A DNA stretch of 64,000 nt from Candidatus Levyibacteriota bacterium (GTDB lineage Bacteria; Patescibacteriota; Microgenomatia; Levybacterales; UBA12049). Each line of letters begins with the position of its first letter. Position 1 is the stretch's first letter. The translations under genes were made by a program, and so were the position numbers. The notes beneath the pieces were generated by a model. That model was given only the letters and a program-made list of their open reading frames with translations. It was not told the origin of the DNA and did no database searches. This document shows positions 6,939 through 12,709 of the stretch, in pieces. The stretch is taken from the NCBI GenBank assembly GCA_016432345.1, contig CP066685.1, forward strand, positions 48,236 to 112,235. Direction: 5' to 3'.

Positions 6939-7029
6939 GGAGGAGTCGCATAGAGGCCCATTGCGAGGGGTTGCTAACCCCTTGAGCTATAAAAGGCTCG
7001 CGTGAGTTCGAATCTCACCTCCTCCGCCA
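6939..7029 (+). tRNA. tRNA-Ser(GCU), CCA encoded
   Basis: Acceptor GGAGGAG/CTCCTCC, anticodon arm AGGGG-TTGCTAA-CCCCT, long variable arm, T arm GTGAG-TTCGAAT-CTCAC. Confidence 0.9.
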
Positions 7030-7118
7030 AGGAGAGGTCGCATAGCGGACTAGTGCAGCAGTTTTGAAAACTGCCGTGACAGCAATGTTACCGTGGGTTC
7101 GAATCCCACCCTCTCCGC
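7024..7118 (+). repeat. Direct repeat, left (att-like)
   Basis: CCGCCAA plus tRNA-Ser(UGA) up to the discriminator. Identical to 12615-12709. Confidence 0.9.
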
Positions 7119-7120
7119 CA
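7031..7120 (+). tRNA. tRNA-Ser(UGA), copy 1, CCA encoded
   Basis: Acceptor GGAGAGG/CCTCTCC, anticodon arm GCAGT-TTTGAAA-ACTGC, long variable arm, T arm GTGGG-TTCGAAT-CCCAC. Confidence 0.9.
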
Positions 7121-8827
7121 AGCAGAACTAATGGGTTCAAAACCAAGCAAATGGCTTGCTATCTCAAGCTGTTTGGCAGGTTCTAACGAAGCTACAATAT
7201 CAGCAATCTCTTTCTTTCCTTTTTCAATTAAGAAGTAGGGTTTATCTCCTGAAATACACAATTTTTTACCCTTTATGGTTAGGTTCGAACCAAGTTTTGA
7301 AAGCACATAGGTTTTGACTTTTGCATCACCCGTAGCAAATTGATAACGTGCAGAACAAGCAAAGTCAAAAGTTTCTTTTGATTGCACAAACCATTCTTCT
7401 AAGCGTTTATCAACCTTTTCAACCTCTTTGTTAATAGCTTTCTTTTCACTTAACAACCTCTTTTCTTCGTCAGAGTAGTATTTTTGCTGTTCAGGGTCGC
7501 TATTAACGTTTTGAGGCGATATACGAAGCCGTAGGAGGTTTCTAAGCTGTGAATCAACATCTTTAACCTGAGTCAACAAGTTACTTTTAATAGCTGTTTG
7601 GCTCGTTTCTTCATGGTCATTCAATTCGTTTAAGTAGTTAATAGCCCAATCCCTAAAGCCTTCATCTATTTCGAACTTTCCCAATTTATTAGTGATTTCA
7701 GTTTCCAAGTCATCGAGAGTAATACTTCCTTGTGAACAGTTAGGATGAACTCGTTTGGTGCAGTGATAAAAAACATAATGCAAAATTTTAGGGTTCTGCA
7801 TGTTTTCAATTAGCGTATGACAATCAGGACATTCGTTAGCTTTTAATCCCTTATGGAATTTTGTTTTACAATTAGGGCAAATTATTTGCCATTTTTCTTC
7901 AGCAGTTATAGAGCCTTCACACTCTGCACATTTTAAGACTTCTTTATAAGCAAACTCTTTCTTGGAATATCTAGGCTTGCCTTTTTTGCCTAGCCGTATT
8001 TGCAGTTGTTCAAATTCCTTTTCGTTCATCATGGCTTTATGAGAACCTTTTATTTCTTGGTATTCACCGTCAACTTTTCTTTTCATAATTCCACAATAAT
8101 ATGAATCGCTTAACATTCGATAAAAAGAGGCTTTGCTCATTGGCCTACCACCTAATTTTTTAGTCCGTCTTGTTTTGTATTTGCACCTGTTATTAAGGTC
8201 AACCAAGGCTTGCATAGGTGTATACATTTTCTTGATGATAAGTTCAAAAGCCTTTTGGATTAATGGGAATCGCTCAGGGTCAGTGTCAATATATGCCTCT
8301 TTTGTTAAAGGATTAAGTTTATTTAAATAGCCTGGTTTAGCAACCCCACCCCATTCTCTTTTTTCGTTGAATTTATATCTGTTTCCCCTAAGTACTGCCT
8401 CACTCAAATCATCAGACGATTTTTTAGCAACAGTAAAATCAATATTTAATGCGAACTTATCTTCAGGGGTGTTGTAGTAAGTGTTGCCTCTTGTTTTAAA
8501 TGCTTTTATTTTCCCTTGGTCAATTTTGTAAATGAATAGCCCACCATCAAGAGAATTTCGGGATATTCTTGTAGCGTTCCATGCTAATACAGCATCAGCC
8601 TTGCCATCGTCTATCATTTGCATCATTCTATTAAATTGTGGTCTGCCTGGTTCAAAAGCTGTATGAGTTTCTTCAATTATTTCAACTACTTTTAAACCCT
8701 CACGTTTAGCAAATTCAGACAGCTCTTTTCTTTGTTGGGGAATTGAAGCAACTTGCTTATCTTCACTATCGCTACTTTTTCTCAAGTAGGTGATAAATCT
8801 TAGCTGTTTAATATCAATTTGTTTCAT
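7088..8827 (-). CDS. Large serine recombinase
   Basis: N-terminal resolvase domain (FITYLRKSSDSEDKQ with the catalytic Ser), a recombinase domain, a Cys-rich zinc ribbon (CAECEGS...CPNC...CPDC) and a coiled coil. The last 33 nt lie inside the tRNA repeat. Confidence 0.9.
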   Translation of the reverse strand: MKQIDIKQLRFITYLRKSSDSEDKQVASIPQQRKELSEFAKREGLKVVEIIEETHTAFEPGRPQFNRMMQMIDDGKADAVLAWNATRISRNSLDGGLFIYKIDQGKIKAFKTRGNTYYNTPEDKFALNIDFTVAKKSSDDLSEAVLRGNRYKFNEKREWGGVAKPGYLNKLNPLTKEAYIDTDPERFPLIQKAFELIIKKMYTPMQALVDLNNRCKYKTRRTKKLGGRPMSKASFYRMLSDSYYCGIMKRKVDGEYQEIKGSHKAMMNEKEFEQLQIRLGKKGKPRYSKKEFAYKEVLKCAECEGSITAEEKWQIICPNCKTKFHKGLKANECPDCHTLIENMQNPKILHYVFYHCTKRVHPNCSQGSITLDDLETEITNKLGKFEIDEGFRDWAINYLNELNDHEETSQTAIKSNLLTQVKDVDSQLRNLLRLRISPQNVNSDPEQQKYYSDEEKRLLSEKKAINKEVEKVDKRLEEWFVQSKETFDFACSARYQFATGDAKVKTYVLSKLGSNLTIKGKKLCISGDKPYFLIEKGKKEIADIVASLEPAKQLEIASHLLGFEPISSAWRRGWDSNPR

Positions 8828-8832
8828 AACTT

Positions 8833-8918
8833 AAATGCCCCCACTGGGTTGTGCTCAGAACGGTGAAGTCCTGTCCCAATGAGGGCATTAAAAAACTCCA
8901 CCTTTCTCCTGAGCACAA
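8833..8918 (-). promoter_or_regulatory. Interleaved inverted repeats in the recombinase leader
   Basis: AATGCCCCCACTGGG (8833-8847) pairs with CCCAATGAGGGCATT (8875-8889). TTGTGCTCAG (8849-8858) pairs with CTGAGCACAA (8909-8918). The order A,B,A',B' gives pseudoknot topology, and the structure ends 6 nt from the start codon. Confidence 0.35.
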
Positions 8919-8957
8919 TTAAATTGTTACAGATTTTGAACTTAAATTCAAGTGTTT

Positions 8958-10814: not shown

Positions 10815-11297
10815 ATGGCAGACAAATTAATTTCAAACACAAAAAGGGATAAACTTTTAAATAAGTGTGAGAGTTTAATGCTCCAAGGGGTCGACAGTCC
10901 AACTGATATATCAGAATCCTTAAATGTTTCTTTTAATACCGCAAGAAGCTATGTAACCATCATTAAACAAAGATGGTCAAACTATTCAAACACTGAAGAA
11001 TTACAAGCTAAACGACAAGAATTAATTCGAAAAACAGAAGAAGTGATAAAAGAGGCGTGGACACTTAAAAATCACGCTAGAAACACCCTAGAAGCCGTTG
11101 GAAGCCTTCGCACTGCTCTCATGGGCATTGAGAGGCTACAAAAACTACTTGGGATTGATTCCTTGCCTATACCAATCGAGAAACCTGTTGAAATTCAGAC
11201 TTTTGAGCTTGCTCAAGAGGTTATTGCGTTACCTGAAGAAGATAAGAGTGTAGCGTTATCTATGATTAGAGAGGAAATTAAGAAAAGAGCTTGCTAA
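10815..11297 (+). CDS. Hypothetical protein, possible HTH
   Basis: 160-aa ORF. DSPTDISESLNVSFNTARSYVTII is HTH-like. Confidence 0.45.
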   Translation: MADKLISNTKRDKLLNKCESLMLQGVDSPTDISESLNVSFNTARSYVTIIKQRWSNYSNTEELQAKRQELIRKTEEVIKEAWTLKNHARNTLEAVGSLRTALMGIERLQKLLGIDSLPIPIEKPVEIQTFELAQEVIALPEEDKSVALSMIREEIKKRAC

Positions 11298-11365
11298 AAT
11301 ACCTATTGATTTTTTAATAAGGATTTGAGATAATTAATGTATAGGATAATAAATTTGAGAATTAT

Positions 11366-12085
11366 ATGAAAATTAAGAAAAAGGCTTCCTCTAAATATTC
11401 TTTTCAAAAAGGATTTTCCCCAATAATCATTGTTGTAATAGCTTTTGTTGTGCTTCTAGGCGGAGTATTTATATACTCAGTTTCAAAAAATCCAGCAGTC
11501 CAAAAACAGGTTGAGTTACAAAAATCCCTTCAAAATACTAGCCAAGATATTCCAAAAGGCAATGCTCACTGGGATAAATCACAAGATTTATTTTCCCAAA
11601 TGAAAAAAGAGACAGACACGGAAAAGATAAAAAAACTAAATGACCAGGCCATACAGGAGTTAAAAGCTGTACTTGATGAGATGCCGAATAATGCTAGAGT
11701 TTGGGATGAGCTTGGGAATGCATATACCTGGGTAAGCAGTTTAGATCCCAAAGCTCAGTTAGACTTAGGATTAGCAGCTTATAAAAAGGCAGAAGAATTA
11801 GACTCAAATAACACTGTCTATATAAATGCTGTGGGTGACCAACTAATAAGCATGCAGAGATACGATGAGGCTATTTTGCAATTTCAAAAGACTTTAAGGC
11901 TTACTCCTAATTCTGGCTATGCTAATTTGAGCTTATGTAATGCTTACAAAGGTGCAAAGGTTTATGATTCTGCCAGAGAAAGCTGCCAAAAGGCTATAGA
12001 TATATTCACTAATGAGAATAAAGACGGAAAGTATGACAGCCAGGTTTTAGAAGCAAAAAAAGCTATGGCTGGTATACCTAAATAA
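11366..12085 (+). CDS. TPR-repeat protein with N-terminal membrane anchor
   Basis: N-terminal TM segment (FSPIIIVVIAFVVLLGGVFIY), followed by TPR-like repeats (WDELGNAY..., AYKKAEELD..., YDEAILQFQKTLRL...). Confidence 0.65.
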   Translation: MKIKKKASSKYSFQKGFSPIIIVVIAFVVLLGGVFIYSVSKNPAVQKQVELQKSLQNTSQDIPKGNAHWDKSQDLFSQMKKETDTEKIKKLNDQAIQELKAVLDEMPNNARVWDELGNAYTWVSSLDPKAQLDLGLAAYKKAEELDSNNTVYINAVGDQLISMQRYDEAILQFQKTLRLTPNSGYANLSLCNAYKGAKVYDSARESCQKAIDIFTNENKDGKYDSQVLEAKKAMAGIPK

Positions 12086-12091
12086 TATTAT

Positions 12092-12445
12092 ATGAATAGA
12101 CCAAAATTTTTAACAGGTTGGCTAATTTTTATGATTATTGGAAATGTATTCTCTCTTTATTCCTATACTTTAGGTTCTGATAACATAGCAAAGACGCTAC
12201 CCAATATGCCTTCCTGGGCAATAACTGTATTTGCAGTAGGAGCAGTAGTAAATTTATTTGCTGTTGTAATGTTATGGATGTGGAAGAAAATGGGTTTTTA
12301 TATCCTAATTGGTTTAGCAATCGTTGTAGCTTCGTTGAATGGTATGCTATTAGGGGTTGCAGGAGTTTTTGCAAGTCTTTTTTCTCTGATTGGAGTAGGA
12401 ATTCTTTACCTAGCTATGAAGCCAGTTTGGCAAAACTTCAAATAA
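12092..12445 (+). CDS. Small multi-pass membrane protein
   Basis: 117 aa with about four hydrophobic segments. Confidence 0.5.
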   Translation: MNRPKFLTGWLIFMIIGNVFSLYSYTLGSDNIAKTLPNMPSWAITVFAVGAVVNLFAVVMLWMWKKMGFYILIGLAIVVASLNGMLLGVAGVFASLFSLIGVGILYLAMKPVWQNFK

Positions 12446-12614
12446 AATAATTGCCTCTGCAGAATATACAAGGATCAAAATAAACTTAAAGACAATCCTT
12501 TGACCTGGATTTTTTAACTTCAGTAAGAAGATTCTGCTATAATTACAGGGCAGAATAAACGGGAACCATAGAATAATTATTGATAAAATAGGTTCTAACA
12601 GCGTCAATGGTTCG

Positions 12615-12709
12615 CCGCCAAGGAGAGGTCGCATAGCGGACTAGTGCAGCAGTTTTGAAAACTGCCGTGACAGCAATGTTACCGTGGGTTCGAATCCCAC
12701 CCTCTCCGC
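12615..12709 (+). repeat. Direct repeat, right (att-like)
   Basis: Identical to 7024-7118. Diverges after ...CTCTCCGC: TA here versus CA on the left. Confidence 0.9.
12622..12708 (+). tRNA. tRNA-Ser(UGA), copy 2, no encoded CCA
   Basis: Sequence identical to 7031-7117. Followed by CTA rather than CCA. Confidence 0.85.

Follow-up and report, generated by a model that had tools for sequence, protein, structure and literature searches.

A serine recombinase element at a duplicated tRNA-Ser(UGA) gene and its probable place in a family targeting tRNA 3' ends

The tRNA-Ser locus and the element boundaries

The stretch of DNA analyzed in this study (64,000 nucleotides of contig CP066685.1 from a Candidatus Levyibacteriota bacterium, hereafter the window) carries, between a pair of tRNA-Ser genes and dprA, a 5.5-kb element bounded by two copies of a 95-bp repeat, each of which contains a complete tRNA-Ser(UGA) gene. 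The features described below support the view that this element is integrated and encodes an intact large serine recombinase (LSR). Those of the boundaries and of the adjoining host genes are as follows, with positions given in the window and with the comparison sequences designated by L and a number.

6939 to 7029, plus strand: host tRNA-Ser(GCU), detected by ARAGORN and Rfam
About 7005 to 7050: unoccupied target site B1, formed by the 3' end of GCU and the beginning of the tRNA that follows, with the core CCGC at 7024 to 7027; the equivalent GCU/UGA junction is occupied in L023 and L094
7024 to 7118, plus strand: left repeat copy, starting with the CCGC core of B1 and ending with the one at the tRNA-Ser(UGA) 3' end
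7031 to 7120, plus strand: tRNA-Ser(UGA) copy 1, with an encoded CCA
7088 to 8827, minus strand: large serine recombinase (integrase) of 579 amino acids (aa), matched in Pfam and PHROG
7096 to 7144: attL, with a B arm formed by the tRNA T-loop and acceptor, where GGTTCGAA starts 21 nt from the GC at 7117 to 7118, and the P' arm CAAGCAGAACTAATGGGTTCAAAACC, where GGTTTTGAA lies on the bottom strand 26 nt from the center; the P' arm also encodes the integrase residues GFEPISSAW
12583 to 12618: P arm of attR, ATAAAATAGGTTCTAACAGCGTCAATGGTTCGCCGC, in which GGTTCTAA lies 26 nt from the center
12615 to 12709, plus strand: right copy of the repeat, identical to the left copy
12622 to 12709, plus strand: tRNA-Ser(UGA) copy 2, without an encoded CCA; its 3' end is site B2, followed by TACGTAAAAC and dprA

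A repeat finder and direct reading agreed that 7024 to 7118 and 12615 to 12709 are equal at 95 of 95 nt, with the identity bounded by T7023/G12614 on the left and by C7119/T12710 on the right, and both ARAGORN and Rfam placed a full tRNA-Ser(UGA) in each copy, as the preliminary description of this DNA had stated. A match of this kind, between identical tRNA genes of 88 nt separated by 5.6 kb, cannot be due to chance. The repeat unit consists of CCGCCAA (the 3' tail of tRNA-Ser(GCU) plus one A), tRNA-Ser(UGA) through the discriminator G, and one further C. According to the same two programs, tRNA-Ser(GCU) ends 1 nt upstream of the left tRNA-Ser(UGA) copy. The left repeat copy runs on into CAAGCAGAAC, which provides the encoded CCA found only on this copy, with its last two bases derived from the element. 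The right copy is followed by the native flank TACGTAAAAC and then by dprA, which starts at 12720 and adjoins the element, in agreement with the preliminary description. The Rfam scan of the element detected tRNAs and nothing further.

The 579-aa protein, already recognized as an LSR in the preliminary description, matched the Pfam domains Resolvase (PF00239; E 1.3e-16, residues 12 to 151) and Recombinase (PF07508; E 2.7e-6, 28 bits versus a cutoff of 21.1), as well as a PHROG integrase family (E 2.9e-51), and its catalytic domain contains the serine-nucleophile motif YLRKSSDSEDKQ. Furthermore, residues 299 to 346, a region with CxxC pairs, gave a sub-threshold match to Zn_ribbon_6 (19 bits; cutoff, 25), and several homologues bear PF13408. 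No match to the tyrosine recombinase domain PF00589 was found among the proteins of the element, the serine type being its only recombinase. As noted previously, the integrase stop codon lies inside the tRNA: the last 33 nt of the open reading frame (ORF) are shared with the left tRNA, and 31 of these belong to the repeat. Antisense to the tRNA 3' end, the final 10 codons plus stop specify the C terminus WRRGWDSNPR.

Junctions in relatives and the short core

In L023, whose integrase is 77% identical in protein sequence, the element lies between tRNA-Ser(GCU) and tRNA-Ser(UGA) without any duplication, with attL reading ...CATCCTCCGCCAAG / ATTGACAG and attR reading ...GTCAATGGTTCG / CCGCCAAGGAGAG. 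The 35 nt left of this attR are nearly identical to window positions 12583 to 12618, and the element ends in L023 and L094 have only CCGCCAAG in common. The integrase genes of L044 and L094, 96.3% identical in nucleotide sequence, are accompanied by the same two arms at different sites, namely, tRNA-Ser(GGA) with a non-tRNA right flank in L044, where the ends share only CCGC, and tRNA-Ser(GCU) with tRNA-Ser(UGA) as the right flank in L094. It follows that several tRNA-Ser genes serve as targets of one integrase lineage, whatever the right flank.

The P arm is found again at the distal end of the element in L009, L020, L032, and L033, and its motif occurs in 72 stretches of JGI/ENA metagenome DNA. 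Across 63 distinct copies, the stretch that begins with ATAAAATAG and ends with GGTTCGCCGC is conserved at 0.8 or more, and directly after GCCGC conservation drops to background; the base following GGTTCGCCGC in distinct P arms is C in 23 cases, A in 14, T in 7, and G in 1. Moreover, L030 (Daviesbacteria) contains an unoccupied GCU-UGA pair with the GCU 3' flank CCGC / ACTTCGACAAGCTCAGTG, and the same ACTTCGACAAGCTCAGTG directly follows the P arm in L039 and L046. The preliminary description had taken the 95-bp repeat for an att site at odds with the rules of serine integrases; this reading is not supported, since relatives share only 4 to 8 bp and conservation ends at GCCGC.

Judging from these alignments, strand exchange is predicted to fall within CCGC, a 4-bp core at the tRNA 3' end that comprises the last two bases of the acceptor stem, the discriminator, and the first base after the discriminator.

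Site geometry

We reconstructed attP by joining window positions 12588 to 12618 to positions 7119 to 7149, which gives the predicted junction sequence GGTTCGCCGCCAAGCAGAAC. The best dyad center of this sequence is the GC of CCGC, with GGTTCTAA starting 26 nt to its left and GGTTTTGAA, on the other strand, 26 nt to its right, while the GGTTCGAA of the tRNA T-loop starts 21 nt from the same GC; the spacings of 26 and 21 nt are found again in L020, at a tRNA-Gln gene. A zinc-ribbon motif located 5 bp further in for attB than for attP is a hallmark of serine integrases (PMC3783163). Thus, the GGTTC spacings of 26, 26, and 21 nt, as read from the sequence, match the canonical attP/attB geometry, and the 5-bp offset is independent of which dinucleotide of CCGC is the true center. 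The putative zinc-ribbon domain probably reads GGTTCRAA of the T-loop, which lies 21 nt from the center in the tRNA; look-alikes of this motif lie 26 nt from the center in both element arms.

The structure in independent assemblies

The strain is present at 100% identity in Logan k=31 assemblies of other sequencing runs (four or more). The contig L106 (SRR4343430) corresponds to window positions 7092 to 12644 at 100%, and its right end falls exactly where the k-mers enter the repeat (12614 + 30). A P/TACG or P/P' junction would break this contig at about 12618 to 12623, and no such break is present; its left end passes 7113 to 7115, where a GCU/P' or P/P' junction would break it. The left end behaves in the same way in SRR4343428, SRR12113425, and SRR12113385, and the dprA contigs of three runs start at 12680 or 12681, not at 12706. 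The variant junctions considered have the following sequences.

GCU/P' junction: CCTCCGCCAAGCAGAAC
P/dprA-flank junction: GGTTCGCCGCTACG

The duplicated structure is therefore real in several samples. A chimera assembled from two insertion variants is ruled out by contigs that are flush to the repeat edges and unbroken by GCU/P', P/TACG, and P/P', which answers, for this version of it, the concern of the preliminary description that the duplication might be an assembly artifact.

We also observed that the host-left contigs (L113 to L115) end at 7022 versus an expected 7053, and that the element contigs (L106 to L109) end at 7092/7093 versus an expected 7089, i.e., 3 to 4 nt short. Such additional branching implies that the samples contain further sequences sharing the tRNA 3' ends, such as those of related strains, other element variants, or an excision product.

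The integrase family and its tRNA targets

We identified 394 homologues of the integrase, almost all of them in the Candidate Phyla Radiation (CPR), or Patescibacteria. The C termini were inspected among the 120 matches listed of the 394, and at least 57 of these end in tRNA-antisense peptides, e.g., W(R/L)xx(D/E)SNP, which is the antisense of CCA, the acceptor stem, and the T-loop; in many others of those listed, the stop codon lies a few codons past the W or L that corresponds to CCA. At 18 of the 22 homologous loci from species-representative genomes, an antisense tRNA overlaps or abuts the integrase 3' end (Gln in 7, Met in 5, Asn in 3, Ser in 2, and Phe in 1), so that the overlap first described for the window is shared across the family. 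The integrase 3' end over an antisense tRNA, together with a crossover inside the integrase frame, is here newly recognized as a family-wide feature.

Relatives of the element occupy other tRNA-Ser genes, which indicates the mobility of this element type and bears out the preliminary description of a mobile element. Scans of IMG/VR with the integrase and with the P-arm pattern yielded no relatives, and the closest phage or plasmid integrases are 21 to 25% identical over part of the length only. An exact 45-nt tRNA-Ser(UGA) pattern found no match in JGI metagenomes.

In the window itself, a cluster of six tRNA genes extends from 2405 to 7120: Ser(GGA), Arg(CCG), Ser(CGA), Arg(GCG), Ser(GCU), and Ser(UGA), with an encoded CCA present on some and absent from others. 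All four tRNA-Ser isoacceptors of the cluster end in TCCGC, and each is therefore a potential target for this integrase subfamily.

Some candidates were discarded or retained only as leads. A second tRNA-Ser in L003, 9.4 kb from the integrase, was dropped as a further case of duplication because no P arm adjoins it, and the direct repeats of 11 to 13 nt at the distal ends of other loci are near chance level. As for neighboring recombinases, in the relative L028 a tyrosine recombinase gene (1363 to 2241) adjoins a tRNA-Arg/tRNA-Ser pair about 1.2 kb upstream of dprA, and in L104 a second, distant serine recombinase gene (10569 to 11552, motif orientation), 28% identical, starts about 400 nt downstream of the P arm and may belong to a different element inserted next door.

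P arms in metagenome DNA

An integrase homologue was present within the fetched DNA for only 6 of the 72 metagenome stretches with a P arm (L034 to L105). For 25 of these P arms, the nearest upstream tRNA on the same strand (23 tRNA-Ser and 2 tRNA-Asp) lies 0.2 to 2 kb away, and the interval contains one to three unrelated genes (NUDIX, XRE-type helix-turn-helix [HTH], hydrolase, and others) and no recognizable P' arm. Such units without an integrase look like remnants or cassette-like units. In L062, two tandem P arms (2585 to 2606 and 4388 to 4409, motif orientation) are found 1.8 kb apart downstream of one tRNA-Ser(GGA), which suggests repeated insertions piled up at one tRNA. In L075 and L082, a host S-adenosylmethionine (SAM)-methyltransferase-like gene continues in frame, at its 3' end, into the P arm, giving a 289-codon frame that ends in EQRTIDAVRTYY, and the insertion apparently took place beside a protein-coding gene and not beside a tRNA. 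The long antisense ORF that crosses this P arm was considered as a recombinase and rejected, as it is the host methyltransferase gene fused by the insertion.

Exchange of the integrase C-terminal tail

The crossover point belongs to the coding frame of the integrase. Read on the minus strand, the P arm would continue this frame past the W codon as TGG CGG CGA ACC ATT GAC GCT GTT AGA ACC TAT TTT ATC, i.e., W-RRTIDAVRTYFI, and integration would therefore replace the element-encoded tail RRTIDAVRTYFI by the tRNA-antisense RRGWDSNPR. The P-arm frame is open for 12 to 57 codons in nearly all 73 copies of the motif. Furthermore, the peptide RT(I/V)DxVRT(Y/F)(F/I/L) is kept across the distant members L002, L006, L009, L020, and L117, with DNA changes that are often synonymous: CGA/AGA (two Arg codons), GTT/GTC, ACC/ACA, and TAT/TAC. 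In L117 and L007, the P arm directly follows the integrase, no tRNA is present, and the gene thus has the un-integrated (attP) configuration with an element-encoded tail; element-encoded tails occur in about 7 of the 120 listed homologues. The C terminus is thus predicted to differ between the excised and the integrated form, and we infer that the swap may affect integrase activity.

A broader hypothesis, which we put forward as doubtful, is that serine integrases across the CPR adopted the universal T-loop and acceptor end of tRNAs as an attB half-site, retargeting among Ser, Gln, Met, Asn, and Phe tRNAs, with the tail swap acting as a built-in sensor of the integration state and the P-arm units without an integrase representing cargo left behind or moved in trans. 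If so, the tail RRTIDAVRTYFI would be present only when the element is excised and the tRNA-encoded tail when it is integrated, tuning activity, stability, or directionality.

Origin of the 95-bp duplication

The line-up of the four sites of the locus at their cores is as follows.

B1 (GCU/UGA junction, intact): left of the core end, ...CACCTCCTCCGC; right, CAAGGAGAGG
attL: left of the core end, ...CACCCTCTCCGC; right, CAAGCAGAAC
attR: left of the core end, ...ATGGTTCGCCGC; right, CAAGGAGAGG
B2 (UGA/dprA flank): left of the core end, ...CACCCTCTCCGC; right, TACGTAAAAC

According to this line-up, attL was made at the UGA core and attR at the GCU core, the latter as in L023. The GCU and UGA cores are 91 nt apart, this distance and the 4-bp core add up to 95, and the repeat edges coincide with the core edges. 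The 95-bp repeat is, in other words, a duplicated tRNA gene between two neighboring target sites and not a recombination site: the same tRNA gene stands outside both junctions, hence the length of the repeat. With the two cores in use, the 91 bp between them and the 4-bp core would appear on both sides of the element.

We therefore favor the explanation that the element is moved by an LSR of a CPR-wide clade targeting tRNA 3' ends, which would act at a short core, with the two-core origin of the repeat included; we assign to this explanation as a whole a joint probability of about 0.72. A single canonical event suffices only if the target was a tandem UGA-UGA pair. Otherwise, homologous exchange within the 5.5-kb element, between copies at the GCU site and at the UGA site, would be required, or a tandem made by the integrase and followed by re-insertion; the exchange and an insertion into a pre-existing UGA-UGA pair whose junction mimics the GCU/UGA site fit the data equally well. 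To a history involving both sites we give slightly less than an even chance.

Next in plausibility, and rather unlikely in our estimation, a tandem UGA-UGA pair could have arisen spontaneously by slippage or unequal exchange between tRNA-Ser 3' ends, followed by one canonical insertion at the inter-tRNA junction; this is a sub-route of the favored explanation in which the integrase has no role in the duplication. The GCU and UGA 3' ends are indeed 86% identical over 35 nt, the predicted junction CTCTCCGCCAAGGAGAGG, which excision of the element would also leave behind, has a right half identical to the GCU/UGA site used by L023 and L094, and a single integrase event would be enough. However, the breakpoint must fall in the 6-nt match CTCCGC, which happens to be the integrase core, the longer 9-nt T-loop match would yield a chimeric tRNA, contrary to observation, and UGA-UGA pairs were not seen among the relatives examined.

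It is improbable that the element instead entered as a circle whose att region consisted of a whole tRNA-Ser(UGA) and 7 further nt, acquired by aberrant excision, and which integrated through the 95-bp identity either in an atypical reaction of the serine integrase or by recombination of the RecA (Campbell) type. The 100% identity of the repeat copies, including the 7 nt from the GCU tail, would be expected from such a circle, which would yield exactly the observed structure, and the weak DnaD-like matches of the 210-aa protein described below would fit as well. However, both junctions are canonical attL and attR, as in the relatives without duplication, and such a circle would lack an intact attP; the un-integrated attP forms of L117 and L007 have contiguous P and P' arms and are tRNA free, and no related locus examined has a tRNA between the two arms. 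In a tRNA-free circle, the P arm would join the P' arm sequence CCGCCAAGCAGAAC.

Least probable of all, with only a slight chance of being correct, is that the deposited genome mis-joins a circular element-plus-tRNA episome and an unoccupied chromosome through the shared tRNA, for although the k=31 graph is the same for this case and for integration and the repeat is shorter than a read, so that the outcome depends on assembly curation, the deposited record is a single 762,565-bp contig, taken as a curated complete genome, and the junctions are canonical attL and attR.

Besides the equivalence of the k=31 graphs, several points weigh against the favored explanation. For the window element, neither an empty site nor an attP junction or an excision product could be recovered, and its current activity is thus putative. 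In particular, a search for an empty site through DprA neighbors showed that the upstream synteny is not conserved in L027 to L029, and only L030 had a GCU-UGA pair that was unoccupied, separated by 25 nt and oriented the opposite way. An integrase is missing from the vicinity of most metagenome P-arm copies, and it could be DNA binding alone, and not coding, that keeps the P arm conserved. GC and CG are palindromic and would be unusual as the central dinucleotide of an LSR; the exact crossover dinucleotide is one that we infer, and the true one may be the CC just to the left. Finally, the sequence is compatible with each of the routes by which the duplication may have arisen.

Other genes and sites of the element

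Besides the integrase, the following ORFs and one further site were found in the element.

8824 to 8961, minus strand: small ORF of 45 aa, partly conserved in close relatives
8958 to 9590, minus strand: 210-aa protein with weak HTH and DnaD-like matches only, common to L009 and L044
9565 to 9741, minus strand: 58-aa three-helix protein, conserved across the family
9795 to 10619, minus strand: 274-aa hypothetical cargo protein
10815 to 11297, plus strand: 160-aa hypothetical protein, with copies 62 to 70% identical in L009, L023, L044, and L094
11366 to 12085, plus strand: tetratricopeptide repeat (TPR) cargo protein of 239 aa, matched in Pfam
12092 to 12445, plus strand: 117-aa hypothetical cargo protein
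12514 to 12543, plus strand: promoter-like site TTAACT-18-TGnTATAAT, pointing out of the element toward tRNA copy 2, with a putative function

The cargo listed in the preliminary description was correct as far as it went, and the two small ORFs of 45 and 58 aa have to be added to it. For the seven ORFs other than the integrase, the TPR repeats were the sole informative match in Pfam and PHROGs, and the same two collections revealed no capsid, tail, terminase, or conjugation genes among the eight ORFs of the element. Of the 22 genome loci, 18 have the 58-aa protein conserved upstream of the integrase, as do L023, L032, and L033; the protein has no Pfam, PHROG, or fold match and is, by position only, a candidate directionality factor or regulator.

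The P-arm region from 12560 to 12618 can form a hairpin (-24.1 kcal/mol; z, -3.2), formed between GAACCAT near 12565 and ATGGTTC near 12607, and GGTTC-type motifs occur three times within 60 nt. Elsewhere in the window, at 43829 to 43902, we noticed a tRNA-Ile with the anticodon UAU, which is uncommon in bacteria.

Comparison with known systems

The analysis removes an apparent exception to the rules of serine integrases, since the long repeat is a duplicated tRNA gene and not a long att site, and the case illustrates the duplication of a tRNA gene through two adjacent equivalent target sites. It also exposes a large family of serine integrases that target tRNA genes, a habit called rare for serine recombinases (PMC3218068), and this family appears widespread in CPR bacteria, whose mobile elements are poorly known. 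The text of a large survey of LSRs does not mention tRNA (PMC10083194), and our literature search found no description of a CPR serine-integrase clade. A conserved tRNA attB, retargeting by close relatives, and a state-dependent tail may be of interest for the design of integrases acting at conserved landing sites.

The system resembles those of Bxb1, phiC31, A118/LI, and SPbeta in its architecture of Resolvase, Recombinase, and zinc-ribbon domains (the last being sub-threshold here), in the core of a few base pairs, in the zinc-ribbon motif located 5 bp further from the center in attP than in attB, and in the small conserved neighboring gene, a possible directionality factor. Different from these phage-type LSRs, to which the window integrase is 21 to 25% identical over part of its length, attP here lies inside the integrase ORF, and the C-terminal tail thus changes on integration; moreover, the elements of the family are 4 to 10 kb in size, and that of the window is without recognizable phage or conjugation genes.

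Among serine recombinases with tRNA targets, the phage phiRSM integrates at 13 nt of tRNA-Ser (PMC4471427). The Int of phiRSM1 and phiRSM3, from Ralstonia, is a small enzyme of the resolvase/invertase type without Recombinase and zinc-ribbon domains, in an inovirus of a proteobacterial host (PMC4471427), and its size (about 200 aa, with a C-terminal HTH) is not matched by the 579-aa window protein with its Recombinase domain. The serine recombinases of the AICEs (integrative and conjugative elements of actinomycetes) of Mycobacterium, detected with PF07508, are similar in that they integrate into tRNA-Leu (PMC3218068). As far as a comparison by description goes, these differ in being conjugative elements of actinomycetes with one tRNA target and no reported overlap of the integrase ORF with the att site (PMC3218068).

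The tRNA islands of tyrosine integrases (Islander; PMC4383910) share with the window element the insertion at a tRNA 3' end that leaves the tRNA intact, the adjoining integrase gene, and tRNA sequence repeated at the opposite end. They differ in enzyme family and chemistry, and their repeat is the block of att identity, a 3' fragment (PMC4383910), whereas the repeat in the window is a whole second tRNA gene outside the junctions. A direct repeat serving as the attP/attB identity block, as in tyrosine-integrase islands, was not found here, relatives sharing 4 to 8 bp only.

The serine integrases of mycobacteriophages have cores of 5 to 8 bp inside ORFs, and in the integration-dependent immunity of mycobacteriophages the C-terminal end, and hence the stability of Rep and Int, is changed by integration (PMC8092301). 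The window family is similar to these immunity systems and to the SSV1-type archaeal integrases in that integration alters the coding sequence of an element gene. Those systems, however, employ tyrosine integrases, and in SSV1 the integrase gene is split outright, whereas the family described here, to judge from its reading frames, would exchange only the last 10 to 25 codons.

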